Below, piece after piece: positions 4,450 to 44,910 of a DNA stretch of 46,322 nucleotides. Source of the stretch: Pirellulales bacterium (GTDB taxonomy: Bacteria; Planctomycetota; Planctomycetia; Pirellulales; UBA1268); assembly GCA_044346905.1 (NCBI GenBank), contig JBIIYH010000001.1:1-46322 (forward strand), in the 5' to 3' direction. The first letter of the stretch is position 1, and every line of letters starts with the position of its first letter. Under the pieces are notes generated by a model. The model saw only the letters and a program-made list of their open reading frames with translations. It made no database searches and was not told where the DNA came from. The position numbers were made by a program, and so were the translations under genes.

Positions 4450-4524
4450 GGGGTTGCCCGTGCCAATCGAGCGGACGGCAGGATGCCGGTAGCGAGCGTC
4501 CAGCGAGATGGCACGGGCAACCCC
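4450..4524 (+). repeat. palindromic intergenic repeat, copy A (75 bp, one internal module)
   Basis: Perfect 16-bp terminal inverted repeat GGGGTTGCCCGTGCCA / TGGCACGGGCAACCCC. It encloses ATCGAGCGGACGGCAGGATGCCGGTAGCGAGCGTCCAGCGAGA. Homologous to copies at 10856, 40431, 41732, 43580 and 44709. Confidence 0.85.
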
Positions 4525-4531
4525 GGGCCAT

Positions 4532-4729
4532 TCACTGCGACCCGCGGAACATGTGGCCGCGAGTTTTCGCGGCCGAGTCGCCGAGCGCGTCGAGGGGCAC
4601 GAAGCCGTCGCTGCCGGGCGGGCCGGCCGGCGGCGGGCCACAGGTGGGCCGAGTGAGCTGCCGCCAGAGCGTGCGACCTAGCCAGCAGGCCGCGGCGACC
4701 GCGATGGCGATAGCCAGGGCGTCTTGCAT
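4532..4729 (-). CDS. small FeoB-associated membrane protein candidate (65 aa)
   Basis: ATG (cat 4727-4729) lies 2 nt after the feoB stop. Sequence: MQDALAIAIAVAAACWLGRTLWRQLTRPTCGPPPAG.... One N-terminal hydrophobic helix with Cys residues. Position and size resemble the small Cys-containing membrane ORFs often found after feoB. Confidence 0.45.
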   Translation of the reverse strand: MQDALAIAIAVAAACWLGRTLWRQLTRPTCGPPPAGPPGSDGFVPLDALGDSAAKTRGHMFRGSQ

Positions 4730-4731
4730 CG

Positions 4732-6723
4732 CTACCAGCCCATCCAGGTGGCGAGCTGGTAGGTCGCGAAGGCGGCCAGCCAGGCGAGCACCGTCATGTA
4801 GGTGAAGGTGACCACGGGCCAGACCCAGCTCTGCGTCTCGCGGCCGATCACGACGAGCGTGCTCGCGCACTGGGCACACAGCGCGAAGAACACCATGATC
4901 GAGAGGGCCACCGGCAGCGTGAACACCGGCCGGTCGGTGCCGTCCCAGCGGGCCGCCTTCAGACGCCGCTCGAGGGCCGTGCCCTCTGCCTCCTCGGGCG
5001 GCAGGCTGTAGAGCACCGCCAGCGTGCCGAGCACCACCTCGCGGGCCGGAAAGCTCGCGATCGCCGCGCAGCCGAGCCGCCAGTCCCAGCCCAGCGGGCG
5101 GACGACCGGTTCGACGAACCTGCCGGCGCGGCCGAGGACACTGCCCCGCTGGATCGCAGCCCGGCGAGCGGCCTCGACGTCGGCCTCGGGCTCACCGGCC
5201 GCCACGGCCGCCTCGGCATCGGCGGCAAGCGTCGCCTCGTTCCGCGGATAGTTCGACAGGGCCCAGACCAGGACGCTGACCGCGAGGATCAGCGTGCCGG
5301 CGTTTTGCAGGAACGACCACACGGCCTCGCGGGCCCGCTCGAGGACGACCGCCGCCTGCGGCCACCGCCAGCGGGGCAGCTCCATCACGAAGGGCTGCGG
5401 CGGCCCGCGAAAGAACGTCCGGGAGAGCACCCAGGCCACGGCCGCGGCCACCGCGATACCCAGGGCATACATCCCCGCCAGCACCACCGCCGGCAGCCGC
5501 AGCCAGGGGATGCCGACGGCGACGTCGGGCACGAAGGCCCCGGCGAGCAGGAGGTAAACGGGCAGCCGCGCCGAGCAGCTCATCAGGGGTGCCACCAGGA
5601 TCGTGAGCAACCGGTCGCGGCGGTTGTCGATCGTGCGGGCCGCCATGATCCCCGGGATCGCGCAGGCGAAGCTCGAGAGTAGCGGAATGAACGACTTGCC
5701 CGACAGGCCCACGCCCACGAGCAGCCTGTCCATCAAGTACGCCGCCCGGGCCAGATAGCCGCAGCCCTCGAGCGCCGCGATGAACAGGAACAAGACCGCG
5801 ATCTGCGGCACGAACACCACGACCCCGCCGACTCCTGCGAGCACTCCATCGACCACGAGCTCGCGAATCGCCCCCTCCGGCAGCCGCCCGGCGACCCAGG
5901 CCGACAGGCCGTCCATGCCGGCCGAGATCAGGTCCATCAGGGGCGCGGCCAACCAGAAGATCGAGCTGAAGACCGCGAGCATCACCGCCGCGAACACGAG
6001 CGTGCCCCAGAGTCGGTGGGTCAGCAGCCGGTCGATCTGGTCCTCGGGCAGCCGGCCGGCCGGCTGGGTCTGCGACGTGATCCCTGCGAGCAGTCGCTCG
6101 ATCGCGGCATAGCGGGCGATCGCCGCGCGGGCCGCCGTCGGACGGTGGGCGTGGGCCGGATCGGCGGGGAGCGGCAGCGGCCGGGGCGGGCCGTTGGCGG
6201 CGGCAACGAGAATCGCGTCTTTGAGCGCGGCGAGCCCTTCGCCCTGCGGCGTGGCGACGGGGATCACGGGGCAGCCGAGCCGGCGGGCGAGCTCGGGAGA
6301 GTCGATCGAGCGGCCCTGGCGGCGGCCGATGTCGCTGAGCGTCAATGCCACCACCAGCGGCAGCCCGAGCTCGGTGGCCTGCGTGGCGAGGAACAGGTTG
6401 CGCTCGAGGTTCGTCGCGTCGGCGACCATCACGACCGCGTCGGGTCGCGGCACGCCCGGCTGCCGGCCGTGGAGGACGTCGATGGCCACCTGCTCGTCGG
6501 GCCCCTGGGGGGTGAGGCTGTAGGTGCCGGGCAGATCGACCAGCTCGATCTCACGGCCACGATGCACGAACCGGCCGAGCTTCTCCTCGACCGTGACGCC
6601 GGGGTAGTTGCCCACGCGGGTGGGAATGCCGGCCAGCGCCGAGAACAGCGTGCTCTTGCCGGTGTTGGGGTTACCGAGCAGGGCCACGGTCAGCCGCGCC
6701 GGTGCGGGATCGCTCGGGGGCAT
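4732..6723 (-). CDS. feoB: ferrous iron transporter FeoB
   Basis: 663 aa. N-terminal G domain (GNPNTGKST, DLPG) followed by a long polytopic membrane domain. Confidence 0.95.
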   Translation of the reverse strand: MPPSDPAPARLTVALLGNPNTGKSTLFSALAGIPTRVGNYPGVTVEEKLGRFVHRGREIELVDLPGTYSLTPQGPDEQVAIDVLHGRQPGVPRPDAVVMVADATNLERNLFLATQATELGLPLVVALTLSDIGRRQGRSIDSPELARRLGCPVIPVATPQGEGLAALKDAILVAAANGPPRPLPLPADPAHAHRPTAARAAIARYAAIERLLAGITSQTQPAGRLPEDQIDRLLTHRLWGTLVFAAVMLAVFSSIFWLAAPLMDLISAGMDGLSAWVAGRLPEGAIRELVVDGVLAGVGGVVVFVPQIAVLFLFIAALEGCGYLARAAYLMDRLLVGVGLSGKSFIPLLSSFACAIPGIMAARTIDNRRDRLLTILVAPLMSCSARLPVYLLLAGAFVPDVAVGIPWLRLPAVVLAGMYALGIAVAAAVAWVLSRTFFRGPPQPFVMELPRWRWPQAAVVLERAREAVWSFLQNAGTLILAVSVLVWALSNYPRNEATLAADAEAAVAAGEPEADVEAARRAAIQRGSVLGRAGRFVEPVVRPLGWDWRLGCAAIASFPAREVVLGTLAVLYSLPPEEAEGTALERRLKAARWDGTDRPVFTLPVALSIMVFFALCAQCASTLVVIGRETQSWVWPVVTFTYMTVLAWLAAFATYQLATWMGW

Positions 6724-6780
6724 GGTCGGGAGTCGCTCGTGATGCCAGGGAAGGGGGCGACCGCGGCCCGGGACGGTCGT

Positions 6781-7080
6781 TCAGGCTCGCGCGACGGTCA
6801 CGCGGGCCGCCTCGGCCAGACGGATCGAGAGCCGATAGCCGCGGAGCTCGAGCTCGAGCGGATCGCCAAAGGGAGCCCGGCCGAGCACCCTGACGGCGAC
6901 ACCCGGCGTGAGCCCCATCTCCAACAGCCGGATCGCCACCGCATCGTCGCCCTCGACGTCGAGCACGCGGACCGTGTCGCCCACGGCGACGGTGTCGAGG
7001 CTGGTCGAGGGGGCGGGCATCTGGAGATCGGGCGGAGATCGGGAGGCGTTGCGGACAGGCTGACTGAACCTGACAATCAA
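6781..7080 (-). CDS. feoA: FeoA-domain protein
   Basis: Contains GDTVRVLDVEGDDAVAIRLLEMGLTPGVAVRVLGRAPFGDPLELELRGYRLSIR, the FeoA SH3-like pattern. An alternative start at ATG 7020 (79 aa) is equally plausible. Confidence 0.85.
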   Translation of the reverse strand: MIVRFSQPVRNASRSPPDLQMPAPSTSLDTVAVGDTVRVLDVEGDDAVAIRLLEMGLTPGVAVRVLGRAPFGDPLELELRGYRLSIRLAEAARVTVARA

Positions 7081-7086
7081 TCGTCA
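7071..7086. promoter_or_regulatory. imperfect palindrome TGACAATCAATCGTCA upstream of or overlapping the feoA start (weak Fur-box-like candidate)
   Basis: Read directly. The half-sites TGACAATC and AATCGTCA match 6 of 8 as an inverted repeat. AT-rich island in a GC-rich context, 5' of an iron-uptake operon. Poor match to the classical Fur consensus. Confidence 0.2.
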
Positions 7087-7170
7087 GCATAGTCGGGACG
7101 ACCAGGATCGGCCGTATCGGCCCGGTCGCGGCCTGGCCTGCTGTCCGCGGAAACCGCCCCCGAGCCGACC

Positions 7171-7941
7171 ATGACCGACCTGCCCCGCCGCGGCCTGTTC
7201 GTGGTCGGCACCGACACCGATGTCGGCAAGACCGCGGTCGCGGTGGCGATTCTTCGGGGACTCGTCGCGGCAGGCCGGCGGGTGGCGGCCTACAAGCCGG
7301 TGGCCAGCGGGATCGCCGCGGCCGCCGAGCCGGGTGGCGACCCCGAGCGACTCTGGGAGGCAGCCGGCCGGGGCGGAGCGATCACATCCGTCTGCCCCCA
7401 GTGCTTCAGGCCGCCGCTGTCGCCGCCGCGGGCCGCTCGCGCCGCGGGCCGCGTGGTCGACGAGCCTCTGCTCCGCACGGGTCTGGCAGTCTGGCGGCAT
7501 CACGAGCTCGCGGTGGTCGAGGGAGCCGGCGGGCTGTTCTCACCGCTGGCCGCGGCAACGCTCGGCGCGGACCTGGCCCGCGAGTTCGGCTACCCGCTGG
7601 TGGTCGTCGATTCCGCCCGGCTGGGGGCGATCGGGCGGACGCTCGCCACCGTCCGGGCGGCCCGGGCCGCAGGGCTCACGGTCGCGGCCTGCGTGCTCTC
7701 GCAGGTCACGCCGCCGCGGGGCGGGCCCGACGATCCGGAGAGTGACGTCGCGATCGCCGCCGCGAACGTGGCCGACCTCGAGCCACTCCTGGCCGACGTG
7801 CCCGTCACGCTGCTCTCCCACGGGGCGACCGGCTTCGCGCCGCCGCTCGACTGGTGGGCCCTGGCTGGCGGGCCCGCGTCACGCTCGAGCGTCACGCATC
7901 CCGGAGCCGGGCCGCCGCCTCCGCGGCCGGCAGCGGGGTGA
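7171..7941 (+). CDS. bioD: dethiobiotin synthase
   Basis: Contains GLFVVGTDTDVGKTAV (BioD P-loop G-T-D-T-x-V-GKT), AYKPVASG and VVEGAGG. The 3' end overlaps the convergent next gene by 50 nt. Confidence 0.85.
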   Translation: MTDLPRRGLFVVGTDTDVGKTAVAVAILRGLVAAGRRVAAYKPVASGIAAAAEPGGDPERLWEAAGRGGAITSVCPQCFRPPLSPPRAARAAGRVVDEPLLRTGLAVWRHHELAVVEGAGGLFSPLAAATLGADLAREFGYPLVVVDSARLGAIGRTLATVRAARAAGLTVAACVLSQVTPPRGGPDDPESDVAIAAANVADLEPLLADVPVTLLSHGATGFAPPLDWWALAGGPASRSSVTHPGAGPPPPRPAAG

Positions 7942-8893
7942 TGTGGCAGCCGGTGCCGAGCTCGAAGCCCGCCAACTGGTTGACCCGCGGCAGGATCTCG
8001 AGGTGCCAGTGCCAGCGGTCGGTCGCCGCCTGGGCCGCTGTCGGCCGCCAGACCGCCTCGTGCAGCCACCAGTTGAAGTCGGCCCCGGGCAGGATCCGCG
8101 CGAGCCGGCCGACCAAGTCGCGGGTCAGGTCCGCCAGCGTCACTGCCCGGTCCGGCGGCGCGGCATGGAAGTGGGGCTCGCGATCGGTCGGCACGATCCA
8201 GATCTCTCCTGGCTGCCGCGGCGCCGCCGGCACGAGGGCCACGAGCCCGTCGGCTTCGGTGACGATCCGTCGCTCGCCCGCCGCCTCCTCGAGCAGCGTG
8301 GCGAACGGATCGGCCTGCCGCGCGGCCGCCGCGAACTCGGCCGCCACCGCCGGCGGCACGAAATCCACCGCCACGAGCTGGCTGTGGACATGCTCGAGCG
8401 ACGCGCCGGCCCGGGGCCCCGAGTTCTTGAACACCGTGCCCCAGGCGAGGTCGTCCCGGCGGGCGAGGCTCGCCAGCCGGCACTGCACGAGCGCCCACGA
8501 GGCCTGCCAGCCGGCCGGGTCGATCGTGGTCACGTGCGTGTCGTGCCGCGGTGACTCGATCACCACCTCGTGCACGCCGTGGGCCGGCCGGCTCGGGCCC
8601 TGGCCGATCGGATCCGCCGCCGGCGCCACGAAGGGATAGCGGTTGGGGATGATCCGGGCCTGCCAGGCCGCGGTCGCATCGGCTGGGGCCCGCAGCACGG
8701 CGGGCGGCGTGAGCGACTCGTTGCCCGCGCAGAACGGGCACCACCCCGCCGCGTCGGCCCCGCCTGAGCCCGCCGCGAGCTCCGCGTCGGTGGGCCGCTC
8801 GTCGCGACCCGGGGCCACGAACACGGCGCGGCCGGTGCGATCGTCGTGATGCACGAGCGGCGGGCGGGACGCGGCGGCGGAAGGCGGGATCAT
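7892..8893 (-). CDS. galactose-1-phosphate uridylyltransferase / ADP-glucose phosphorylase family (HIT branch III)
   Basis: 333 aa. Contains CPFCAGNE (zinc motif), IPNRYPF and the H-x-H-x-Q active-site pattern (EHVHSQL). Confidence 0.75.
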   Translation of the reverse strand: MIPPSAAASRPPLVHHDDRTGRAVFVAPGRDERPTDAELAAGSGGADAAGWCPFCAGNESLTPPAVLRAPADATAAWQARIIPNRYPFVAPAADPIGQGPSRPAHGVHEVVIESPRHDTHVTTIDPAGWQASWALVQCRLASLARRDDLAWGTVFKNSGPRAGASLEHVHSQLVAVDFVPPAVAAEFAAAARQADPFATLLEEAAGERRIVTEADGLVALVPAAPRQPGEIWIVPTDREPHFHAAPPDRAVTLADLTRDLVGRLARILPGADFNWWLHEAVWRPTAAQAATDRWHWHLEILPRVNQLAGFELGTGCHITPLPAAEAAARLRDA

Positions 8894-9001
8894 CGCATCC
8901 AGTATGCCCGCGCCCGCCAGGGCGGGCTTTCGTGTTGAACCGCCCCTGTCGTGGCCGTAGACTCGGCGACTCCAAGCTCACCGTTTTTCGGAGGAATCCG
9001 C

Positions 9002-9532
9002 ATGCTCACCGTCGGCGACTCGTTTCCCCAGTTCTCCTGCCAGGCCTGTGTCGGCACCGGCAAGGACGACGTGAAACTGCTCTCGAACGCCGATTACGCG
9101 GGCAAGTGGGTGGTCTACTTCTTCTATCCCAAGGACTTCACGTTCGTCTGCCCGACCGAGCTCGCGGAGTTCAACAAGCAGCTGGGAGCCTTTTCCGACC
9201 GCGACACGAGCGTGGTGGGCGGGAGCACCGACAACGAGTATTCCCACCTCGCCTGGCGCCGGAGCCATCCCGACCTCGAGAAGCTCGGCTACCCGCTGAT
9301 CGCGGCCCAGAAGCTGTCCGCTGAACTCGGGATCCTGGAGAAGACCGAGGGCTACTGCCTGCGGGCCACCTTCATCGTCGATCCCCACGGCGTGATCCAG
9401 TGGGTGGACGTCAATCAGGGCCGCGTCGGCCGCAACGTGGCCGAGGTCGTCCGCGTCCTCGACGCCCTCCAGAGCGACGAGCTCTGCCCGTGCAACTGGA
9501 AGAAGGGCGATCCCTACGTGAAGGTCGGCTGA
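9002..9532 (+). CDS. peroxiredoxin (AhpC/Prx1-type)
   Basis: Starts at ATG 9002, preceded by GGAGGA. Contains KWVVYFFYPKDFTFVCPTEL (peroxidatic Cys motif) and a C-terminal Cys pair. Confidence 0.9.
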   Translation: MLTVGDSFPQFSCQACVGTGKDDVKLLSNADYAGKWVVYFFYPKDFTFVCPTELAEFNKQLGAFSDRDTSVVGGSTDNEYSHLAWRRSHPDLEKLGYPLIAAQKLSAELGILEKTEGYCLRATFIVDPHGVIQWVDVNQGRVGRNVAEVVRVLDALQSDELCPCNWKKGDPYVKVG

Positions 9533-9540
9533 CGCCCGGC

Positions 9541-9960
9541 GTGCCGCTTCCCGCCCCCGTCCCTTCCCCGTCCCTTCCCCGTCCCTTGAAACCGCCCCCC
9601 CGCACCTGGATCGGGAAGTTCGCCGACGCGTTCCGTGGGCTCTTTCTTTCGGTCGCCAACGAGTCGAGCTTCGCTGCCCACATCCCGGCGGCCCTCGCCG
9701 CGGTGGCGCTGGCCGCCTGGCTCGGCATCTCGGCGGTCGAGTGGTGCCTGGTGGCGCTGGCCATCGGGCTGGTGATCATGGCCGAGGTGTTCAACACCTC
9801 GATCGAGGCCCTGGCCCGGGCCGTGGGCCGCTATCCAGACGACGGGATCCGCGACGCCCTGGACCATGCCAGCGGCGGCGTGTTCGTGGCGGTGATCACG
9901 GCGGTGGTGATCGGCTGCATCATCCTCGGGCCCCGGCTCTGGCAGCTGGCGTGGCAATAG
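9541..9960 (+). CDS. dgkA: diacylglycerol kinase (DgkA family); start uncertain
   Basis: Three hydrophobic helices and the E-x-x-N-T-x-IE motif (AEVFNTSIEAL). No ATG lies downstream of the ahpC-like stop. In-frame starts are GTG 9541 or TTG 9586 (124 aa, typical size). Confidence 0.7.
   Translation: MPLPAPVPSPSLPRPLKPPPRTWIGKFADAFRGLFLSVANESSFAAHIPAALAAVALAAWLGISAVEWCLVALAIGLVIMAEVFNTSIEALARAVGRYPDDGIRDALDHASGGVFVAVITAVVIGCIILGPRLWQLAWQ
9555..9587. repeat. three perfect tandem copies of the 11-bp unit CCCCGTCCCTT
   Basis: Read directly: 9555-9565, 9566-9576, 9577-9587. Located at or near the 5' end of dgkA. The unit length is not a multiple of 3. Confidence 0.9.
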
Positions 9961-9975
9961 TGTCCGAAATCGTGG

Positions 9976-10005
9976 TTGACGCTCGCCGGCAGGTGCGCCT
10001 ACGGT
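9976..10005 (+). promoter_or_regulatory. sigma70-like promoter candidate for aqpZ (TTGACG-N18-TACGGT)
   Basis: TTGACG at 9976-9981 and TACGGT at 10000-10005, about 90 nt upstream of the aqpZ ATG. Promoter rules for this lineage are uncertain. Confidence 0.25.
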
Positions 10006-10092
10006 AGCGGCCCCCGGGTGGAGCCGGCCGGACCGGGCCCGGCCCGCCGAGAGGCGGCACGCCAACACTTTTCTCAAGAAGGATCCATTTCC

Positions 10093-10809: not shown

Positions 10810-10855
10810 CCGGCTAAGCGTTACGGCCAGGATCCTGAACTGCTCGACGCCGGGA

Positions 10856-10986
10856 GGGGTGGCCCGTGCCAATCGAGCCGGCCTTGGCAGCGAGCGCAGG
10901 CAGGATGCCGAAGCGAAGCTGGCATGGAACGAGCGGAGGGCAGGATGCCCGCAGCGAGTGTCCGGCGAGATGGCACGGGCCACCCC
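10856..10986 (+). repeat. palindromic intergenic repeat, copy B (131 bp, two internal modules)
   Basis: Perfect terminal inverted repeat GGGGTGGCCCGTGCCA / TGGCACGGGCCACCCC. Two internal GGCAGGATGCC cores. Confidence 0.85.
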
Positions 10987-11018
10987 GACCTCCGCCGGAG
11001 GTCGCCTCTCCCAGCCGG

Positions 11019-21295: not shown

Positions 21296-23095
21296 ATGTC
21301 CGGCCCGTCCGAGTCTGACCTGCGGCCCTATTTCGACAGCCGCTGGTATGCCGCCACCTACGGGCCGGGCAGGCGGCGGGTCCGCTGGCGGCCCTGGCGG
21401 TATTACCGCCGCCGCGGCTGGCGAAAGGGGCATGCTCCCTGCCAGCTGTTCGATGCCGCCTGGTACCTCGCCAGCCATGCCGACGTGAGATCGGCGGGCC
21501 TCGAGCCACTGGCGCATTACGTCGAGCACGGCTGGCGGGAGGGTCGCCAGCCGCACCCGCTCTTCGATCCCTCGTGGTACGCCGACCGGTATCCCGACGT
21601 CGTGAGCAGCGGCCTCGAGCCGCTCCTGCACTATCTCACGGCGGGCTGCCGAGAGGGCCGGCAGCCCCATCCGGCCTTCGATGCAGCCAGCTACATCGCG
21701 GCGAATCCCGACGTGGCGGCAGCGGGCCTCGACCCCCTGGCCCATTACCTCGAGTACGGCTGGCGGGAGGGTCGCCGGCCGCACCCGCTCTTCGACATCG
21801 GCTGGTATCTCGACCGCAATCCCGACGTGGCGGTCGCGGGCCTCGAGCCGCTCTCACATTTTCTCAGTCGCGGCCGGGAGGAAGGCCGCGCAGCGGCTCC
21901 CGGCTTTTCGCCGGCCGGTTCACCTGCCGCTCGGCCGCAGCCACCCGCCACTGGCCCCGTCAATCGTGGCCAGGTGCGGGCGATCGCGATGTACCTGCCC
22001 CAGTTCCACCGGATCGCGGAGAACGACGCCTGGTGGGGCGAGGGTTTCACGGAGTGGACCAACGTCCGCCGGGCTCGGCCGATGTTCGCGGGCCACCAGC
22101 AGCCGCACGTGCCGCATCCCGACCTCGGCTACTACGACCTCGATGACGAGACCGTGCTCGAGCGGCAGGCCGAGATGGCCCGCCGCCACGGGATCCACGG
22201 GTTCTGCTTCTACCACTACTGGTTCGCCGGCCGGCGGATCCTCGAGAAGCCGGTCGAGCGGCTCTTGGCGAGCGGCCGGCCCGATATCCCCTTCTGCGTC
22301 TGCTGGGCCAATGAGAACTGGACGCGGTCCTGGGACGGGCTCGACCGCGAGGTGCTGCTCGAGCAGCGGCACTCGGCGGACGGCGACGAGCGGTTCCTGC
22401 GCGACCTCTTGCCGGCGGTGCGCGATCCCCGCTACATCACCGTCGAGGGCCGACCGCTCCTGATCGTCTACAGGCCGGGCCTGCTCGCCGAACCGGCGGC
22501 CACCGCGGAACGGTGGCGGCGGATCGCCGAGCGGGAGGGTCTGCCGGGGCTGCACCTGGCTGCCGTGCACGCCTTCGACCAGGCCGATCCGCGGAGCTAT
22601 GGCTTCGACGCGGCGATCCAGTTTCCGCCCCTGCAGATCCCCGCCGCCAACCTCCGCGACACGGGCCTCGGCGGGCTGGACCGCCGCTTCCGCGGGGGTG
22701 TGCTCGACTACCGCGAGGCGGTCTGCCACTCGCTCGCCCGGCCCGCGGCCGACTACCCGCTCTACCGCGGCGTGATGCCCGGCTGGGACAACACGCCCCG
22801 GCGGATGGAGCGGGCCACCGCCTGGGTCAACTCCTCGCCCGAGCTCTACGGCCGCTGGCTGCGGGGCGCGGTCGAGCAGATGCAGCGGGAGCAGCCCCCC
22901 GAGCGGCAGCTCGTGTTCATCAACGCCTGGAACGAGTGGGCCGAGGGGGCCCACCTCGAGCCCGACGTGCGGCACGGCTACCGGGTGCTGGAGGAGACGG
23001 CGGCGGCGCTCCTGCCGCGGGCCGCGGGGCGGCGGCCCGAGCCGGTGGCCGTGGAGTCGGGTGCCCAGGCGAGCCGGGGGCGCCAAGCGGCCTGA
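21296..23095 (+). CDS. five 38-aa tandem repeats fused to a WbsX-family (PF14307-like) glycan biosynthesis domain
   Basis: 599 aa from ATG 21296. Repeats follow FDxxWYxxxxPDVxxAGLEPLxHYxxxGxxEGRxPHP. The C-terminal part has YLPQFHRI.ENDAWWGEGFTEWTNV and CWANENWTR.WDG, hallmarks of WbsX. Confidence 0.85.
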   Translation: MSGPSESDLRPYFDSRWYAATYGPGRRRVRWRPWRYYRRRGWRKGHAPCQLFDAAWYLASHADVRSAGLEPLAHYVEHGWREGRQPHPLFDPSWYADRYPDVVSSGLEPLLHYLTAGCREGRQPHPAFDAASYIAANPDVAAAGLDPLAHYLEYGWREGRRPHPLFDIGWYLDRNPDVAVAGLEPLSHFLSRGREEGRAAAPGFSPAGSPAARPQPPATGPVNRGQVRAIAMYLPQFHRIAENDAWWGEGFTEWTNVRRARPMFAGHQQPHVPHPDLGYYDLDDETVLERQAEMARRHGIHGFCFYHYWFAGRRILEKPVERLLASGRPDIPFCVCWANENWTRSWDGLDREVLLEQRHSADGDERFLRDLLPAVRDPRYITVEGRPLLIVYRPGLLAEPAATAERWRRIAEREGLPGLHLAAVHAFDQADPRSYGFDAAIQFPPLQIPAANLRDTGLGGLDRRFRGGVLDYREAVCHSLARPAADYPLYRGVMPGWDNTPRRMERATAWVNSSPELYGRWLRGAVEQMQREQPPERQLVFINAWNEWAEGAHLEPDVRHGYRVLEETAAALLPRAAGRRPEPVAVESGAQASRGRQAA

Positions 23096-31500: not shown

Positions 31501-34500
31501 TCGTCTCCCCGGGCGACCGCCCAGGCGGTGGCCAGATCGCGGCGGTTGTCGAGCGGTGTCTCGACGCCTGCCGTTTCGGCCAGGACGCGGCCCGCCACGA
31601 GCCGCAGCCGGCCACCGGCCGAGGTCAACTGCCCGAGGAGGGCGGTATGGTCGGCGAGGAAGCCGGATCGCGCCCGGTCCGGTTCCCCGCCCGCGACCGC
31701 CGTGACCCGCGACCAGGCATGCTGTCGCAGTTCGGCCGGCTCTCGAGGCAGCGAATCGGCCGCCGCAGCGGGGCCCGCTGCGGCGACGGAGCGACGGGCC
31801 GGTGGGCGGACACCGAGCGCTGCGGCCGTCTCTTCGAGGTAGGCGTAGCCGTGCTGGATGTCGGGCTCGAGGTGGGCCCCCTCGGCCCATTCGTTCCAGG
31901 CGTTGACGAACACCAGCCGATGCTCGGGGGGCTGCTCGCGGACCGTGCGGTCGATGGTCGCCCGCAGCCAGGCGGCGTAGCGGGCCGGCGTCGAGCCGAT
32001 CCAGGAAGTGGCCCTTTCCAGCCGCCGGGCCGTGTTGTCCCAGGCCGGCATCAGGCCCCGGTACATGCGATATCCGGCCGCGGCTTCGGCCAGCGAGAAC
32101 GCCGTCGCCTCGGCGTAGTCGTGGATGCTGCCGGAGAACCCCGGGACCGCGGCCAGCCCGGGGTCTCTGGCCATGTTGCGGGCGGGGATTTGGAGCGGTG
32201 GAAACTGGATCGCCGCGTCGAATCCGAACCGGGCCGGGTCATCCTTGGAGAAGCTGCGGACCGCCACCAGGTGAATCTCGCCGATCCCTGCCCGACGGCA
32301 CTCCTCCCGCCAGGTGGCCGCCGCCCGCTTTGGATCGGCGAGCGACTCGGGGCGGTAGATGGCCAGGAGCGGTCGGCCGGCCACGCGGATGTATCGCGGG
32401 TCGCCCAGGAGCGGGATCACGTCCCGGATGAAGTCGCGGTCGGCCGCAGGCTCGTGCGACTGCGCCATCAGGATCTCGGTGTCGTGGCCGTCCCACGTCC
32501 GGGTCCAGTTCTCGTTGGCCCAGCAGATGCAGAAGGGGAACTTCGGCCGCCCCGAGCGGAGCATCTCGTCGAGCGGCTTCTCCAGGAGCCGCCGGCCCCC
32601 GAACCAGTAGTAATAGAAGCAGAAGCCGTGGATCCCGTGGGCTGCGGCCATCGCGGCCTGCCGTTCGAGCACGGCCGGGTCGGAGAGATCGTAATAGCCG
32701 ACGTCCGGGTGCGGCACGTGCGGCTGACCGTGGCCCGCGTACATCGGCCGACCGCGGCGGACGTTGGTCCACTCCGTGAAACCCTCGCCCCACCAGGCGT
32801 CGTTTTCCGGGATTCGGTGGAACTGGGGCAGATGCATGGCGATCAGCCGCACGCCCGCATCAGGCGTGACCATCGCGGGCCGCCGCGCCGCGGCCATCGG
32901 AGCCGGCGGGGCCATCGGGGCTGGCCGCTGCGCTGGCTGCTGGCCGCTCGTCAGGGCCGCGGGAGCCGGCGGGGCCGGCAGTCGGCCGGCCTGCCACTCG
33001 CGGTACGAGTCGCTCCAGCGGAACAGGGGCGCGAGCCTCGTGAACAGCCGGTGCCTCAGCCGCTGCTTGGCCGGGATCGAGAGCGGCAGCTTCCGCCACC
33101 AGCGGCGGCCCGTCGCCGAGATGGTGCGCCTCAGCCAGTCGGCCGGCCGGGAGACGGCCCGGCGGCGAATGGACCGCAGCGGCCTGGTGAGCTTCCAGGA
33201 TTTGCTGCCCTGAAGTTGGGCGAGCTCGTCGGCGAGCTCGTGCACGGCCTGTTCGCTGTCGCTGCCGCGGCGCTCGGCGGCAGACAGCCGCGAGCAGAGC
33301 TCCGCGACTTCGGCCTCCCGCTCGGAGCGGCCGCGGAGGGCCGCTGCCGCCGACTCCGCGGCCTGCCGCTGCACGGATTCCAGTCGCGATTCGAGGTCCC
33401 GGCTGTGTTCCGCGGCGGCCTGCAGGCCGCGCTCGAGCCGGGCCAAGTGGGCATCCCGCTCCGCGATGGCCGCACGGTGGTCGGCCAGTTGCCGCTCTCG
33501 CTCGGCCAGCGAGCGGTCGTGCTCGGCAAGCCGCTCGTGCAGTTCGGCCGCCTGCCCCTCGAGGTCGGCGATCCGCCCCTGCCGCGCGGCCAGTTCGTCC
33601 GCCAGATCGGCCGCCGCTGCATCCCGACCGGCGAGCTCCTGAGCCCGGCTGGCGATCTGCTCTTCAAGTCCGGCGATCCGGGACCGGTCCGCGGCGACAT
33701 CCTGGTCGCGTTCGAGGAGCCGGCCCCGGGTCGCTGCCAACTCCTGCTGCACGCCCTCGAGCCTGGCGGTGAGGGTCGCCGTCTGGGCCGCTTCCTCCTT
33801 GACCGCCTGCTCCCGACTCGCCTGGGACGCCGCCAGGTCGGCGGCCAGCCGTTCATTGGCCTGATCGGACTCGTCGACCGCTGACTCCAGCAACCGCGTC
33901 CGGGCCACGAGGCCACAGTTGCGGCTCCACTCCTCGAAACCGTGGACCGCGATCGCCTGACTCCCGGTCGCCAGCGGCTGCGGGACCGCCGCACCGGCCC
34001 TGGCAGCCAGCTCCGCATAGAGTTCGAGGGCTTCCGGGCAGGCGGCGGCCAGGAAGTCGCTCCGCGCGGCTTCGACGGTCGAGGAGAGCAGCTCCGGCTG
34101 ATAGCGATCCGGCGGCGGCTCGAGTGGCACCCGTAGGGTCCGCCGCACCGCCTGGAACACCTTGTCCGGCGCGGCGACGAGCTGCGACAGATCGCAGACG
34201 AGCGACCGCTCCGGGTGCCCGGCGGCAAAGTCGCGGATCAGGCGGTTGTAGTGCAGCCACACCTGGATCGCGAACGGCGGATTCGTGCGAAACGCCTCGT
34301 CGCCGCGGCGGTAGAGCGAGTCGACGACCTCCCAGGGCCGGCGGATCACGAACAGGAACCGCGCTTCGGGCAGCAGGTCGGCCCAGAACTCGAGGTGCAG
34401 GGTGGTGCGGGGATCCTTCCAGCCCCAAGGCATGTTCCGCTCGCGCCGCGCGGCCACGAGCTTCTCGGCTTCCTGACGGAGCCGGTCGGGCACCTGGGGC

Positions 34501-40294: not shown

Positions 40295-40370
40295 GCCGCC
40301 GGCGGATTTTGACATTGCACACTCCGCTCGCATGGTAAGCCAACTCTTCCAGTCAAAATGCACCGGCGGC
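40295..40370. promoter_or_regulatory. 19-bp imperfect inverted repeat with a 38-nt spacer in the 5' region of the SDR gene
   Basis: GCCGCCGGCGGATTTTGAC (40295-40313) versus GTCAAAATGCACCGGCGGC (40352-40370), 17 of 19 complementary. Each arm carries a TTGAC hexamer-like sequence facing outward. Confidence 0.4.
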
Positions 40371-40430
40371 TGCGCGCGACCCCCTGCCCGGCTGTCCGTT
40401 TTGGATCTTCCGGAGCCTGCCTGGGGAGGA

Positions 40431-40561
40431 GGGGTCGCCCCTGCCCCGGAGCCGGCCTAGCCAACAAGCGTAGCCAGGGATGGCGAAGCGCAGTTGGCTC
40501 GGAGTGAGCGAAGGGCAGGATGCCCGCAGCGAACGTCCGGCGATGGGGCAGGGGCGACCCC
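40431..40561 (+). repeat. palindromic intergenic repeat, copy C (131 bp, two modules)
   Basis: Perfect 17-bp terminal inverted repeat GGGGTCGCCCCTGCCCC / GGGGCAGGGGCGACCCC. The internal sequence is collinear with copy B (GAGCCGGCCT...GGGCAGGATGCCCGCAGCGA.CGTCCGGCGA). Confidence 0.85.
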
Positions 40562-40613
40562 GACCGGCCAGTTGACGTCGCTTCGGTCACGCTCCAGCGA
40601 TTTCCGCGATCCA

Positions 40614-41684
40614 TCACGATGGGGACTCCGCGGCGTAGTGCTTGCCGACCCACTCCCGATACCCGCCGCTCGTCACGTCGGCCACCCAGGCGGCGTGGTC
40701 GAGGTACCAGCGGACGGTCTTCCTGAGGCCGGTCTCGAAGGATTCGCTCGGCCGCCAGCCGAGCTCGGCGGTGATCTTGGCGTGGTCGATCGCGTAGCGG
40801 CGGTCGTGGCCCGGCCGGTCGGTCACGAACGTGATCTGGGTGGCGTAGGGCTGGCCATCGGCCCGGGGATGCTCCTCGTCGAGGATCCGGCAGAGAGCCC
40901 TGACCACGTCGATGTTGGCCAGCTCGCTCGAGCCGCCGATGTTGTAGACCTCGCCCGGCCGGCCCGCCTCCAAGACCCGCCGGATGGCGGTGCAGTGGTC
41001 GGCCACGTAAAGCCAGTCGCGGACCTGTCGGCCGTCGCCGTAGATCGGCAGCGGCTCGCTGGCCACGGCCCGATGGATGCACAGCGGGATCAGCTTCTCG
41101 GGGAACTGCCAGGGGCCGTAGTTGTTGGAGCAGTTGGTGGTCACGACCGGCAGGCCGAAGGTGTGGTGATGGCCGCGGACCAAGTGGTCGCTGGCCGCCT
41201 TGGTGGCGGCGTAGGGGCTGTTGGGCCGGTACTGGGTCGTCTCGGAGAAGGGCGGGTCATCCGGGGCGAGCGTGCCATAGACCTCGTCGGTCGAGACGTG
41301 CAGAAACCGGAAGGCCGTGCGGTCGGCCGCCGGGAGGCTCGTCCAGTGGGCTCGGGCCGCCTCCAAGAGCCGAAACGTCCCCACCACATTGGTCTCGACA
41401 AAGTCCTCGGGCCCGTGGATCGAGCGATCGACGTGGCTCTCGGCGGCGAAGTGGACGATCGCCCGGATACCGTGCTCGGCCAGGAGCCGCTCGACGAGTT
41501 CCCGGTCACTGATGTCGCCCCGCACGAAGGTGTGCCGCGGGTCGCCTGCCAAGCTCGCGAGGTTCGCCAGGTTGCCGGCGTAGGTGAGCTTGTCGAGATT
41601 CACCACCGGCTCGTCGGAGGCGGCGAGCCAGTCGAGCACGAAGTTTGAGCCGATGAAGCCGGCGCCGCCGGTGACGAGGATCAT
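40614..41684 (-). CDS. rfbB: dTDP-glucose 4,6-dehydratase
   Basis: 356 aa. Contains MILVTGGAGFIGSNFV, DKLTYAGN, HFAAESHVDRSI and YAATKAASDHL, canonical RmlB. Confidence 0.96.
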   Translation of the reverse strand: MILVTGGAGFIGSNFVLDWLAASDEPVVNLDKLTYAGNLANLASLAGDPRHTFVRGDISDRELVERLLAEHGIRAIVHFAAESHVDRSIHGPEDFVETNVVGTFRLLEAARAHWTSLPAADRTAFRFLHVSTDEVYGTLAPDDPPFSETTQYRPNSPYAATKAASDHLVRGHHHTFGLPVVTTNCSNNYGPWQFPEKLIPLCIHRAVASEPLPIYGDGRQVRDWLYVADHCTAIRRVLEAGRPGEVYNIGGSSELANIDVVRALCRILDEEHPRADGQPYATQITFVTDRPGHDRRYAIDHAKITAELGWRPSESFETGLRKTVRWYLDHAAWVADVTSGGYREWVGKHYAAESPS

Positions 41685-41731
41685 GGGTGCCGATGGATCG
41701 GAGGTTTGTTCTGGGCTACGCGAGGTGGGCC

Positions 41732-41890
41732 GGGGTTGACCATGCCATCTCGCCGGACGCTCGCTTCAGGCATCCTGCCTTTCGCTCGCTCGATGCTACC
41801 CTCGCTTTCGCCACGGGCACCGATCCGCCGTAGGCGGATTGGTCGGCTTCGCTCGGCCAGCAACGCCGCTCGATTGGCATGGGCAACCCC
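41732..41890 (-). repeat. palindromic intergenic repeat, copy D (159 bp, three modules, inverted orientation)
   Basis: Termini GGGGTTGACCATGCCA / TGGCATGGGCAACCCC (1 mismatch). The reverse complement of the interior is collinear with copy F (ATCGAGCGGCGTTGCT...TAGCATCGAGCGA...GGCAGGATGCC...AGCGTCCGGCGAGA). Confidence 0.85.
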
Positions 41891-42013
41891 TCCCGTCGAT
41901 GGAACTCCAGAAAGGATCAACGCAGAATACCTGCCCGGAAGCCGCTTCGCACCGGGGAATCGCGGGGTATGCTTGGGAGCGGTTCCTTCGCTGCCCAGGC
42001 TCGTTTTCCCGCC

Positions 42014-42532
42014 ATGTCAGAGCCCCTCGCCACGCGGCTGTCGCTCGTCCGCAGCCTTCGGTTCTGTGCTGGCCACCGCCTGCTCGGCCACGAGGGGCGG
42101 TGCGCCTTTCTCCATGGCCATAACTACCGGGTGGAGGTCGAGGTCGAGGCCCGCGGGGGGGGCAGCGAGGTGGACGCCGTCGGCCGGGTCGTGGACTTCT
42201 CGCTGATCAAGCGGCGGCTGTTGGGCTGGCTCGACGAGCACTGGGACCACACCTTCATCCTCTGGGACGAGGACACGACGGCCCTGGCCGCCGTCAAGCA
42301 GGCCGACCCCACGAAATACTTCCTCCTGCCCTGGAACCCGACGGCCGAGAACATGGCCCGCTATCTGCTCGAGGTCGTGGCCCCGCACGTGCTCCAGGAT
42401 CTCGGCGTGGTCGCCCGGCGGGTGGCCGTGTGGGAGACCGACGAGTCGTGTGCGATCGCCACGCTCGCGGGCCCCGGCGGCGAGCCCCTGCTCGACCTCA
42501 CCTCCGCGATCACCGTGGACTCGCGCTCATGA
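42014..42532 (+). CDS. queD: 6-carboxytetrahydropterin synthase / 6-pyruvoyl-tetrahydropterin synthase family
   Basis: 172 aa from ATG 42014. Contains FCAGHRL, C...HGHNY.VEV and E.W, the PTPS/QueD zinc and catalytic pattern. ATGA overlap with hemB. Confidence 0.8.
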   Translation: MSEPLATRLSLVRSLRFCAGHRLLGHEGRCAFLHGHNYRVEVEVEARGGGSEVDAVGRVVDFSLIKRRLLGWLDEHWDHTFILWDEDTTALAAVKQADPTKYFLLPWNPTAENMARYLLEVVAPHVLQDLGVVARRVAVWETDESCAIATLAGPGGEPLLDLTSAITVDSRS

Positions 42533-43557
42533 GCGACGCCTGGCACTCCGGCATGTTTCCGGCGACCCGACTGCGAAGGCTGCGGCGGCACGAGTGGCTC
42601 AGGCGGGCCGTCGCCGAGACGGTGCTCACCCCCGCCGACCTCGTCTGGCCGATCTTCGTCCACGACCACGAGGCGGCCTTCCCGGTGCCGAGCATGCCGG
42701 GCGTCGAGCGGCTTCCGGTGGAGGGCGTGCTCGTGGCAGCCGAGGAGGCCCTGCGGCTCGGCATCCCGGCGATCGCGGTGTTTCCCGTGGTCGATCCCGC
42801 CCGCAAGACCGACGACGGGGGCCATGCCCTCGATGCCGATAACCTCGCCTGCCGCACCGTGCGGGCGATCCGGGCGCGGTTCGGCGACGCGCTGGGGCTG
42901 ATCTGCGACGTGGCCCTCGATCCCTACACGACCCACGGCCACGACGGACTCCTGCGGGATGGCCAGATCGTGAATGACGAGACGGTGGCCGTGCTTTGCC
43001 GGCAGGCGGTCGTGCTTGCCGAGGCCGGCTGCTCCGTGGTGGCCCCATCCGACATGATGGACGGCCGGGTGGGGGCGATCCGCGAGGCGCTCGACGAAGC
43101 AGGGCGGGAGGACGTGTGCATCCTCTCCTACGCCGCGAAGTATGCCTCGGCCTTCTACGGGCCGTTTCGGGACGCGGTCGGCAGCGCGGCGGCCCTGGGC
43201 ACGGCGGCTCAGCAGGGCGTGGCCGACAAGAAGACCTACCAGATGGATCCGGCCAACGCCGCCGAGGCGATCCGCGAGGTGGCCCTCGACATCGCCGAGG
43301 GGGCCGACATGGTGATGGTCAAGCCCGCTGGGACGGCGCTCGACGTGATCCACCGCGTCAAGGCGGCCTTCGGCCTGCCGACCTTCGCCTACCAGGTGAG
43401 CGGCGAGTACGCCATGATCAAGGCGGCGGCCGACAACGGCTGGCTCGACGGGGAAAAGGCGGCCCTCGAGAGCCTGCTCGTGATCAAGCGGGCCGGGGCC
43501 GATTGCGTGCTGACGTACTTCGCGCCCCAAATCGCCCGGCGGTTGGCCGGCGGCTAA
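42529..43557 (+). CDS. hemB: porphobilinogen synthase (delta-aminolevulinate dehydratase)
   Basis: 342 aa. Contains RLRRLR, DL..P.FV, SDMMDGRV, SYAAKYAS.FYGPFR, MVKPA, YQVSGEYAM and DC.LTYFA. Confidence 0.95.
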   Translation: MSDAWHSGMFPATRLRRLRRHEWLRRAVAETVLTPADLVWPIFVHDHEAAFPVPSMPGVERLPVEGVLVAAEEALRLGIPAIAVFPVVDPARKTDDGGHALDADNLACRTVRAIRARFGDALGLICDVALDPYTTHGHDGLLRDGQIVNDETVAVLCRQAVVLAEAGCSVVAPSDMMDGRVGAIREALDEAGREDVCILSYAAKYASAFYGPFRDAVGSAAALGTAAQQGVADKKTYQMDPANAAEAIREVALDIAEGADMVMVKPAGTALDVIHRVKAAFGLPTFAYQVSGEYAMIKAAADNGWLDGEKAALESLLVIKRAGADCVLTYFAPQIARRLAGG

Positions 43558-43579
43558 GACCGGTCGTCGGGCGTGGGCC

Positions 43580-43669
43580 GGGGTTGCCTGTGCCGTGTCA
43601 CCGGACGTTCGCTACGGGCATCCTGCCTGCGCTCGCTATCAAGGCCGGCTCCACGGCAGAGGCAACCCC
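43580..43669 (-). repeat. palindromic intergenic repeat, copy E (90 bp, one module, inverted orientation)
   Basis: Termini GGGGTTGCCTGTGCCG / CGGCAGAGGCAACCCC (1 mismatch). Interior reverse complement: GAGCCGGCCTTGATAGCGAGCGCAGGCAGGATGCCCGTAGCGAACGTCCGGTGACA. Confidence 0.85.
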
Positions 43670-43689
43670 TCGCGTCTGAAATATTCCTG

Positions 43690-44232
43690 TCACCCCTTCG
43701 GCCGAAAGGCGACGAGTCGCTTTGGGTTTGTGTCCAGCCGTGGCGGGTCGGCCGCTCCGGTGTGGATCAGATCCACGCAGTAGGGGATCGCCGGAAAGAC
43801 GGCATCGAGGCATTCGCGAATGCTCTTGGGCCGGCCAGGGAGATTGACGACCAGCGCCCGTCCGCAGACGCCCGCGGTCTGACGCGAGAGGATCGCCGTG
43901 GGCACGGACTCGAGCGAGACCTTCCGCATCAGCTCGCCGAAGCCGGGCAAGAGCTTCGTGCAGGCCCGCTCGGTGGCCTCGGGCGTGACGTCCCGTGGGG
44001 CAGGGCCGGTGCCACCGGTGGTCACGATGAGGCAGCAGCCGGAGGCGGCCAGCTCACGGATCGCCGCGGTGATCGTGTCGAGGTCGTCGGGCACGATCCG
44101 CTCGCGGGCCTCCCACGGGCTCGAGAGCACCTCGGCGAGATAGTCGCGGATCGCGGGCCCACCCTCGTCGGCATACTCGCCGCGGCTCGCGCGGTCAGAC
44201 ACCGTCAGGATTCCGATCAGGGCTGGTCGCAC
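43690..44232 (-). CDS. mog: molybdopterin adenylyltransferase (MogA/MoaB family)
   Basis: 180 aa from GTG 44232 (VRPALIGILTVSDRASRGEYADEGGP). Contains TTGGTGPAPRD.TPEA and NLPG.P. The track ORF start at 44640 is an antisense-overlap extension. Confidence 0.88.
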   Translation of the reverse strand: MRPALIGILTVSDRASRGEYADEGGPAIRDYLAEVLSSPWEARERIVPDDLDTITAAIRELAASGCCLIVTTGGTGPAPRDVTPEATERACTKLLPGFGELMRKVSLESVPTAILSRQTAGVCGRALVVNLPGRPKSIRECLDAVFPAIPYCVDLIHTGAADPPRLDTNPKRLVAFRPKG

Positions 44233-44239
44233 GACGGTG

Positions 44240-44695
44240 TCACTCCTGGGAACGGTCGTGGGTCCAGGCGAAGAGCCTGATCCGGTTGCCGTCGGGGTCG
44301 GTGGCCACGAACTCCCGAAACCCCTCGGGGTTGGCGGCCGGCTCGGGCGCGGCGCATCCCGCCGCCGCCAGCCGCTCTCGCGCCGCCTCCAGATCCGTAA
44401 CCTCGAAGGCCAGGCTCCACCGCCGGCTCTCGGGAGGAGCCTCGTCGCGGCCCAGGATCGCCAGCCGCGCGGAGCCGGCCGCCAGCAGGGCATAGCGGTC
44501 GTCGACCACCCGGAGGAGCACCTCGAGGCCGAGCGCGTCGCGGTACCAGGCCACGAGCGCCTCCCACCGCGCCGAGCGAATCTCGACGGCAAACAGCGTC
44601 GGCCGATCCGCGTCGCGGTTTGACAAAAGAGGCTCCTCACAGCCAGCGAAGCAAAGAAGCGTCACCAACGCCAGGCAGCGTTCTACCCTGCGCAC
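44240..44695 (-). CDS. glyoxalase/bleomycin-resistance/dioxygenase (VOC) family protein, possibly a lipoprotein
   Basis: The core LFAVEI....W...V.WY.DALGL....DPDGN.I.L is VOC-like. GTG 44695 gives VRRVERCLALVTLLCFAGC, a signal peptide with lipobox-like FAGC. The alternative TTG 44626 is preceded by GAGGAG and gives a 128-aa cytoplasmic form. Confidence 0.7.
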   Translation of the reverse strand: MRRVERCLALVTLLCFAGCEEPLLSNRDADRPTLFAVEIRSARWEALVAWYRDALGLEVLLRVVDDRYALLAAGSARLAILGRDEAPPESRRWSLAFEVTDLEAARERLAAAGCAAPEPAANPEGFREFVATDPDGNRIRLFAWTHDRSQE

Positions 44696-44708
44696 CAGAG
44701 GACTGCGA

Positions 44709-44910
44709 GGGGTTGCCCAGGCCAATCGAGCGGCGTTGCTAGCGAGCGCAGGCAGGATGCCGAAGCGGATGCGGGATACCGGCGAGCTAGCATCGAGCGA
44801 CCGGAGGGCAGGACGCCCATAGGGAGCGTCCAGCGAGATGGCATGGGCAACCTCGAGCCCGCGCGCGAGAGGCCCCACCGAGCGTCCGGCGAGATGGCAA
44901 GGGCGACCCC
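44709..44910 (+). repeat. palindromic intergenic repeat, copy F (three modules, 44709-44854) plus an orphan right half-element (44879-44910)
   Basis: Termini GGGGTTGCCCAGGCCA / TGGCATGGGCAACCTC (2 mismatches). This is followed by CGAGCGTCCGGCGAGATGGCAAGGGCGACCCC, which has no left partner. Confidence 0.8.

Follow-up and report, generated by a model that had tools for sequence, protein, structure and literature searches.

In the 46,322-nt stretch of DNA analysed here, referred to below as the window (positions 1 to 46,322 of contig JBIIYH010000001.1 of the Pirellulales bacterium assembly GCA_044346905.1), several intergenic spacers are occupied by copies of a palindromic repeat whose two ends change together from one copy to another. 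The locus raises the question of which molecule, DNA or RNA, these repeats are selected to fold in, and of what spreads or keeps them. A sequence-only reading had placed six copies at 4450-4524, 10856-10986, 40431-40561, 41732-41890, 43580-43669 and 44709-44854 (copies A to F in the following), and had proposed a genome-wide count, a statistical test of the covariation and a search for a RAYT/TnpA(REP) gene. All six copies are present, and all are recovered by a covariance model of the family. The source genome (G000) is a 3.14-Mb Pirellulales metagenome-assembled genome (MAG) of 70.5% G+C in 395 contigs, of which the window is contig C38; the covariance-model search returns at least 110 copies in it, all of them intergenic. 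What is new in this family is a genus-specific, three-armed, strand-specifically folded interspersed repeat, whose behaviour is like that of REP/REPIN/BIME and of structured repeats of the miniature inverted-repeat transposable element (MITE) type. On balance it is probably a genus-specific, non-autonomous mobile repeat of the REP/REPIN/MITE kind, propagated or maintained through its folded top strand, most likely as single-stranded DNA.

A three-way junction with two GGA-tipped arms

The repeat unit is about 139 nt long, and one of its strands (the top strand) folds as a three-way junction made of six helices. The closing stem consists of 16 bp plus 4 outer positions (20 bp), 5'-GC(GA/TC)GGGGTTGCCCGTGCCA ... 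TGGCACGGGCAACCCCGAGC-3'; the terminal stems of 16-17 bp described in the sequence-only reading are present, but GGGG is not their start, as they extend 4 further positions outward (GC(GA|TC)GGGG...CCCCGAGC). In the 189 copies whose flanks were analysed for stem extension and target-site duplication, outer positions +1/+2 hold C-G/T-A or else a tandem A·G/G·A, covariation is seen at position +3 (C-G 111, G-C 24, T-A 18), which is paired in 156/189 copies against 107 expected, and pairing ends at position +5. Inside the closing stem, an internal loop (AATCGA / GAGAT) is followed by a 5-bp helix (GCCGG/CCGGC) and then by the two arms. Arm 1 comprises a variable 9-bp helix (for example TGCTGGCC/GGCCAGCA, TGGAAACC/GGTTTCCA or TGATAGC/GCTAGCA), a conserved pyrimidine-pyrimidine mismatch, a short AGCG/AGCG segment bordered by G·A, and an apical hairpin of the form G(G/C)CA-GGA-TG(C/G)C. 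Arm 2 is an irregular helix with scattered A·G/G·A, whose tip is GGGCA-GGA-TGCCC or one of the variants GGCCA..TGGCC and GCACA..TGTGC. The arms repeat one another in direct orientation, at a spacing of 39-41 nt, and each carries at its tip the motif CAGGATG, with an invariant GGA loop on a 4-5-bp stem; the conserved unpaired bases of the junction are GAG/AG/GGA. CAGGATG occurs 177 times in the 14 kb of elements, as compared with 105 times in the 594 kb of remaining non-coding DNA. The top strand adopts the same junction whether RNA or DNA parameters are used (-91.8 kcal/mol, z -6.4, and -49.0, z -5.4, respectively), while the bottom strand folds worse (-44.3, z -4.2) and its interior is ill-defined. 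Genome-wide, left and right ends can be paired into 66 copies of 129-133 nt as well as into shorter and longer forms.

The covariation originally reported for the terminal stem is exact: position 6 pairs as T:A, G:C or C:G, position 11 as G:C, C:G or A:T, and the last position as A:T, G:C or C:G. The three stems said to be perfect are those of copies A, B and C, while mismatches are found in D, E and F; the common start GGGGT.G.C..TGCC does not hold for copy F, which reads ...CCCAGGCC. We have studied pairing statistically with 65 canonical copies of the source genome at 46 pair positions, using 500 shuffles, and as a control partner columns slid by 1-3 positions. The same 46 pairs were then evaluated in an independent set, in which 121 copies of about 70 other MAGs were aligned by fitting to the model; in reading both tests it should be kept in mind that the copies share descent. 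In the source genome standard pairs occupy 96.3% of pair cells, against 84.5% after shuffling, with changes on both sides in 29/46 pairs and 311 double-change cells where 81 are expected. In the independent set 95.5% of pair cells are paired, 37/46 pairs have changed on both sides, and the double-change cells number 737. None of the 500 shuffles reached any of the pairing measures in either set, and when the partners were slid only 30-43% (source genome) and 34-43% (other MAGs) of the cells remained paired. Among column pairs, those that rank highest in mutual information all correspond to Watson-Crick pairs within the proposed helices, and covariation is seen in six helices of the junction, well beyond the terminal stem. 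Selection on the fold is strongly supported by these results. The earlier proposal that selection acts on pairing rather than on sequence is thereby strengthened, and it can be extended from the terminal stem to the whole branched structure.

Pairing is also retained over longer times. All 25 orthologous copies have 0-1 mismatches in the 16-bp stem, in a setting where the flanks differ by 6-27%. Whole arm variants are swapped between orthologues (for example GCCAGC/GCTGGC and GGAAACC/GGTTTCC), which points to conversion or replacement from copy to copy rather than to stepwise compensation.

Distribution, turnover and size variants

Each of the 24 other species sampled from the genus carries the family, at 8 to more than 83 copies per species, and the covariance-model search found no copy in 16 families of the order beyond its own. 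Among 300 sampled genomes of the phylum (238 genera), one weak, single match lay outside the genus (G055:C72:43122-43254, in another family of the phylum). This copy is diverged, with ends GCGA|GGG...CCC|GAGCC and loops CGA and AGGAG, and it may be an old relative, a transfer or a binning error. No copy was found in a viral contig collection. The named carriers are Planctomycetota/Pirellulales MAGs recovered from freshwater lakes, namely Lake Mendota, lakes in Switzerland and the Czech Republic, Lac Pavin and ELA. Some of the public MAGs that carry the repeat (the records of loci L018, L029, L042, L013 and others) are labelled 'Candidatus Kuenenia stuttgartiensis', 'Planctomicrobium piriforme' or 'Chitinophagaceae'; these clearly belong to the freshwater Pirellulales genus, or include contigs of it.

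Spacer types were assigned genome-wide with a crude GC3-based open reading frame caller and, like the orientation counts, pooled over the source genome and the loci of relatives, so that all counts of context are approximate. Convergent spacers with a copy outnumber divergent ones by 60 to 13 (p 2e-8), copies being found mostly near gene 3' ends; in tandem spacers 41 copies run along the direction of the genes and 38 against it. In the source genome the copies are spread over about 95 contigs, 62 on the + and 60 on the - strand. About 30% of the copies are placed at the end of a contig. At least three other repeat families adjoin many of the copies in a mosaic that is BIME-like (for example G000 C299 at about 3400-3527, C159 at 7256-7440 and C142 at 9900-10020); these families are GGGCCTCCGCCCGGCGGCCGCACCTCCGGGCGGCCGTG...GTTCAGACGAATC, GCGAAATCTCCAGGCTCCTCCGGCTTCCACCCCCGGCT with an inverted partner, and the palindrome CAGGGGCATCCATGCCCCCTG.

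Copies are gained, lost, inverted and truncated between species. In G011, the closest species, the spacer that corresponds to that of copy B is 23 nt long, lacks the element and cannot be aligned, between flanks that are 90-94% identical; it measures 0-10 nt in several relatives, and in others ordinary hairpins are found in it. The element is inverted in G020, G024 and three sister lineages, with the left junction GGGA| in common, which means either an inversion in situ between the inverted ends or a re-insertion. Within the species, copy B is fixed in ten contigs from different samples. Copies C and D are common to G011, G010 and G018; copy C is 98.5-100% identical in three species with flanks at 87-90%, far above other orthologous copies, while the orthologues of copy D in G011 and G018 are plain 131-nt forms with other arm sequences. 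Of copy E only a 12-nt remnant (GGGGTTGCCAAC) is left in G011, and copy F has an orthologue in G010 and is missing in G011. Over fifteen orthologous pairs the elements are 61.5-100% identical, as compared with 73.5-94.6% for the mainly coding flanks, and in 9 of the 15 pairs the element falls below its flanks, by up to 21 points.

It is against this background that a signal belonging to the host has to be considered, i.e. a structural DNA or transcript-end signal that is host-encoded, non-mobile and spread by recombination only, such as a terminator, a protector of mRNA 3' ends, or a site for a nucleoid- or gyrase-type protein as proposed for the REP/BIME of E. coli. The marked preference for gene 3' ends, the very stable 20-bp GC stem, the intact state of old copies and the fixation of copy B in 10/10 contigs of its species are all in keeping with such a signal. 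Copies D and F, however, lie in divergent promoter spacers, the same spacer can be empty, filled or inversely filled in close relatives, and congeners differ in copy number over the whole range given above (8 to >83). Moreover, a terminator or stabiliser has no need for two conserved inner arms and for a strand-specific fold that is independent of gene direction. We consider this explanation very unlikely; a simple terminator in particular was rejected on the arrangement and orientation of the copies.

The size variants of the family can be followed in the window itself. Copy B (10852-10990, + strand) is the canonical two-module unit, with its core at 10856-10986 plus a 4-nt stem extension (GGGA...GACC) and a score of 147 bits, between the convergent genes for aquaporin Z and a PQQ-type beta-propeller protein. 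Copy C (40427-40565, +; core 40431-40561) is likewise canonical, and is antisense to the two minus-strand genes that flank it, GDP-mannose dehydratase (gmd) and an epimerase of a glycan locus. Copy A (4450-4524, +; covariance-model E 2.6e-7), between the convergent groEL (2731-4362, +) and feoB (4732-6780, -), is a 75-nt one-module deletion form that retains only the closing stem and the second hairpin arm. Copy E (43580-43669, -), between the convergent hemB and a MoCF-domain gene, is a 90-nt one-module fusion of the 5' half of module 1 with the 3' half of module 2, corresponding to 131 minus the 41-nt module spacing. In the 159-nt copy D (41732-41890, -), which lies in the divergent spacer between gmd and PTPS, there are two modules, and a 27-nt extra hairpin (ACCAATCCGCC TAC GGCGGATCGGT) stands in place of the first GGA loop. 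Copy F (44705-44858, +), also in a divergent spacer, has a 146-nt core (44709-44854), canonical flanks GCGA...GAGC and an insert of 16 nt (GATGCGGGATACCGGC) within arm 1, on its 3' strand. A seventh, partial copy at 44880-44916 (+), a solo right end reiterated 25 nt past copy F, consists of the right end at 44880-44911 (GAGCGTCCGGCGAGATGGCAAGGGCGACCCC) and GAGCC. The statement that the window is free of transposases is borne out for the ten genes flanking the copies. Elsewhere in the window there are a tRNA gene at 919-990 (-), its sole Rfam match at gathering level, three tandem 114-nt units at 21449-21866, and long inverted repeats of about 280 nt, 71-86% complementary and about 10 kb apart, between 21974-23011 and 31815-32852; these are probably paralogous gene segments of the glycan locus.

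The sequence-only reading had described the interiors as built of one, two or three modules. This is correct for the 75- and 90-nt forms (one module) and for the 131-nt form (two), but the 146- and 159-nt forms are two-module units with an unrelated insert and contain no third GGCAGGATGCC module; no copy with three GGA modules was found. Deletions between direct repeats in the interior, together with small nested inserts, account for the different sizes; an expansion by added modules, as had been suggested, does not. In the family at large, both modules are fused in the 90-93-nt forms, which equal 131 minus one module spacing of 40±1 nt; a deletion from one internal CGAGCG repeat to another produced the 75-nt form, the 16-nt insert in arm 1 gives the 146-147-nt forms, and the 155-159-nt forms have the 27-nt extra hairpin (CACCGATCCGCC NNN GGCGGATTGGTC) in place of a GGA loop, usually that of arm 2. 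In copy D the extra hairpin is in arm 1 and in the orientation opposite to the usual one, and one 174-nt copy carries both inserts. Many full copies are followed by 1-3 tandem reiterations of the right end with a tail (GAGCGTCCGGCGAGATGGCAcGGGCaACCCC + GAGCCTGCGTCACCCAC), among them the partial copy after F. The tail is found solely after the right end of an element, and since GAGCCTGCGTCACCCAC never occurs apart from it, we rejected the possibility that it is an independent target sequence; a loose search for a corresponding head upstream was uninformative.

The folded strand and what may read it

A G·T pair on one strand of DNA corresponds to an A·C mismatch on the other, and thus an excess of either type identifies the strand that is under constraint. 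At the paired positions of copies in other genomes G·T/T·G exceed A·C/C·A by 149:21 (p 6e-25), which identifies the top strand; purine-purine mismatches are also commoner than pyrimidine-pyrimidine ones at these positions. If the selected form were a hairpin in a read-through transcript, the asymmetry would be reversed in copies that are antisense to their tandem flanking genes. In the closing stem the G·T to A·C ratio is 19:3 in sense copies and 23:3 in antisense copies, and with no reversal the folded strand must be set by the element itself. No promoter-like sequence is conserved, since beyond 4 nt the flanks differ from copy to copy. From a strand set by the element and the lack of a conserved promoter we infer a single-stranded DNA form; between the DNA and RNA hairpins that had been offered as alternatives, the evidence leans toward a substrate that is single-stranded DNA (or element-autonomous) over a host-transcript hairpin. 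The top strand is found on the locally C-rich strand in 60/89 copies of the source genome (60:29, p 0.0013) and in 66/100 copies in the loci of relatives (66:34, p 0.0013).

If the family is a mobile repeat, the top strand in its folded state would be the substrate, most probably as single-stranded DNA that replication exposes. Recognition of the two identical hairpins and of the conserved unpaired GAG/AG/GGA bases would fall to an enzyme provided in trans, much as in IS200/IS605 and RAYT systems, and the stems would be kept paired by lineage selection for copies that can be transposed or converted, plus exchange between copies.

The same two loops can be interpreted in the light of RNA binding. 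According to this hypothesis, a top-strand transcript would offer two CAGGAUG hairpins, held about 40 nt apart on a rigid stem, to a dimer of the CsrA family, the more than 100 copies would act as sites that bind or titrate CsrA or as transcript tags, and mobility would merely be the means of spread. We regard it as possible, well short of probable. CAGGAUG is also the repeated motif of CsrB in E. coli. Every one of the 31 genomes of the genus contains csrA, most of them as 3-5 paralogues, a high number for genomes of 3-4 Mb (in the source genome, for example, at C217:10040-10195, C353:4350-4496, C319:9010-9183 and C112:4776-4901). The CsrA consensus derived by SELEX, RUACARGGAUGU, has GGA in the loop of a short hairpin, and one dimer bridges sites 10-63 nt apart (PMC7652899); the invariant GGA within CAGGATG in both loops, the 4-5-bp stems and the spacing of 39-41 nt can be set beside this consensus and this range. 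The strand-specific constraint with its tolerance of G·U, the preservation of old copies with copy C almost invariant, and the density of CAGGATG in the elements (177 in 14 kb) would follow as well. This hypothesis is challenged by the observation that the orientation of the copies is random relative to flanking genes (41:38), and by the equal G·T excess in sense and antisense copies, which indicates that selection does not act on host read-through transcripts. Copy C, the best conserved, runs antisense to its operon, there is no conserved promoter, and the loop is one base shorter than that of the A(N)GGA / AYGGAY type. Rfam gave no match on either strand of the element, whether at gathering level, with four copies at E<=1 or with one copy at E<=10, so that even at the last of these levels no TwoAYGGAY, Rsm or Csr model is matched.

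A more conventional route of mobility was also considered. Target-site duplications were sought in the 189 copies as direct repeats of 2-8 nt at offsets 0-8, and none was found beyond the palindromic consensus; the flank consensus itself, GC(GA/TC), is compatible with a target as well as with a part of the stem. An ordinary MITE would be a deletion derivative of an insertion sequence (IS) with a DDE transposase, moved via its 16-20-bp terminal inverted repeats, and the internal pairing would be a by-product, for instance of palindrome repair. Nearly all copies have such terminal repeats in their 16+4-bp complementary ends, and the length of 75-160 nt, the high copy number, the location in spacers and the presence or absence of copies between species are those of a MITE; the parent could be missing because MAG assemblies often drop multi-copy IS. 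A derivative of this kind is nonetheless unlikely, given that duplications are absent at any offset or length, that the longer parent was sought without success in the source genome and about 190 loci of relatives, that the internal helices show covariation and invariant unpaired bases which a DDE enzyme would not read, and that the strand asymmetry is strong.

The search for a mobilising enzyme, together with several properties of the copies, weighs against the interpretation of the family as a mobile repeat. The Y1 transposase family (PF01797) has one gene in the source genome, which is the outcome of the RAYT/TnpA(REP) search proposed at the outset, and is above the family cut-off in 13/31 genomes of the genus, while half of the genomes of the genus show no Y1 match although rich in copies, among them several that are 95-97% complete and contain more than 83 copies. 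The gene (G000 C167, about 3040-3640, -) is RAYT-like, with HUH and Y motifs present, and is flanked on both sides (C167:2881-2975 and 3692-3795) by inverted doublets of AAAAAGGGGACATCCCCC(G/T)TTTC, 60-80 nt apart, of which there are about 15 genome-wide; this is the classic RAYT-REPIN arrangement of another family. All 14 HUH loci of the genus are free of copies of the element within 1.5 kb, and a second HUH family of the relatives is absent from the source genome. The RAYT link suggested in the sequence-only reading is thus not upheld: a RAYT gene does exist outside the window, but it borders a different REPIN family and is near no copy, many carriers lack Y1, and we rejected the resident RAYT as the mobiliser. 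No cognate TnpA partner with the same ends was found, the TnpB, IS91/Y2 and IS110 families not being covered by the search, nor did the source genome or the approximately 190 loci of relatives show a longer element with the same ends 0.3-6 kb apart, with the reservation that fragmented MAGs may lose multi-copy IS. A clean empty site was not obtained either, as the G011 spacer of copy B is unalignable, the G011 copy E is a deletion remnant, the ten contigs of the same species are filled and the sister lineages have the element inverted; the ends are accordingly putative. In the source genome the G·T excess is weak (33:20), and the sign of the GC-skew bias is contrary to the naive expectation from IS608, a comparison whose reading requires a closed genome. 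Finally, near-intact old orthologues and the near invariance of copy C fit maintenance at each locus, by a host function or by conversion, better than the decay of selfish DNA.

For these last observations we also considered a functional junction that is kept by the host, either as a dispersed mobile platform for the 3-5 CsrA paralogues, or as a single-stranded DNA substrate of an undescribed enzyme that reads hairpins and is distinct from both the resident RAYT and the known IS transposases. Perfect pairing over 6-27% of flank divergence, the near-invariant copy C and the constraint on the element's own strand would be accounted for in both versions; we hold such a junction to be rather doubtful.

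Relation to known repeats and significance

Compared with known systems, the family falls short of the defining features of RAYT-REPIN, of DDE-transposase MITEs, of attC sites and of the GGA-hairpin families of Rfam. Close in behaviour are the REP/REPIN/BIME-RAYT systems of Pseudomonas and Enterobacteria (PMC3116915, PMC3733652), which are similarly extragenic and high in copy number, form an overall palindromic hairpin kept by compensatory changes, make no target duplication, lie at gene ends, are often clustered with other repeats, are lineage-specific and have a RAYT gene in the genome. Compensatory changes are common in REPIN hairpins (PMC3116915), and RAYT genes with other kinds of flanking repeats, as well as REP classes without a dedicated transposase, are on record (PMC3733652). 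The element differs in being a 139-nt three-way junction instead of a 20-40-bp hairpin or an inverted REP doublet, in having inner modules that are direct repeats where those of a REPIN are inverted, and in the lack of an unpaired GTAG/CGTC-type head, its ends being paired out to GC(GA/TC)...GAGC. Furthermore, the RAYT gene is flanked by the other family and is missing from many genomes that carry the element. In the IS200/IS605 single-stranded DNA transposons and their non-autonomous derivatives (PATEs), activity depends on hairpins folded on one strand; the element resembles them in its two similar subterminal hairpins on the same strand, the absence of target duplication and an orientation bias relative to a strand-asymmetric genomic property. 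Those transposons, however, have no long terminal inverted repeat, insert beside a fixed tetra- or pentanucleotide, and come with a findable TnpA (often also TnpB) with the same ends.

ERIC, Correia (CREE), BOX, RUP and bcr1 are likewise imperfect palindromes of about 100-160 nt in spacers, with size variants that arise by internal deletion or insertion, and BOX is modular. These repeats have target duplications or known DDE parents (Correia, RUP), or act as transcribed hairpins. To our knowledge, in a comparison made by description only, none of these five has been described with six covarying helices, two GGA-loop arms and strand-specific tolerance of G·T. The TwoAYGGAY RNA motif (Weinberg et al. 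2010, PMC2864571) and the sponges of the CsrB/RsmZ type also have two GGA-loop hairpins closed by a stem, are multi-copy in some genomes, and have loops that resemble CsrA sites at a spacing that suits one CsrA dimer. The element is set apart from TwoAYGGAY by its loop, which is AGGAU in CAGGAUG and not AYGGAY, by a different phylum, and by an orientation that is unrelated to transcription. The attC sites of integrons, lastly, are imperfect palindromes of 60-140 nt in which structure and not sequence is conserved and which act as a folded single DNA strand, but they form arrays in the same orientation between cassettes beside intI and have RYYYAAC/GTTRRRY cores. We rejected attC on the basis of copies that are dispersed in both orientations (62 on +, 60 on -) and of stem positions 5-6, which correspond to the core and are the most variable.

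Bacteria commonly carry interspersed palindromic repeats, of which few are demonstrated to maintain a multi-helix fold, and whether the selected molecule is DNA or RNA is seldom established. The family described here is an unusually clean case, from an uncultured, ecologically abundant freshwater lineage in which hundreds of natural variants per genome define the fold. The comparison of the G·T excess between sense and antisense copies provides a simple test that separates folding in a host transcript from folding on the element's own strand. In practical terms, the repeat breaks MAG assemblies, as seen from the proportion of copies at contig ends (about 30%), and it is a ready marker for the genus. 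Should the two GGA hairpins indeed be the target of an enzyme or of a CsrA paralogue, the family would represent a link between mobile DNA and post-transcriptional control, or a new route of hairpin-dependent mobilisation.

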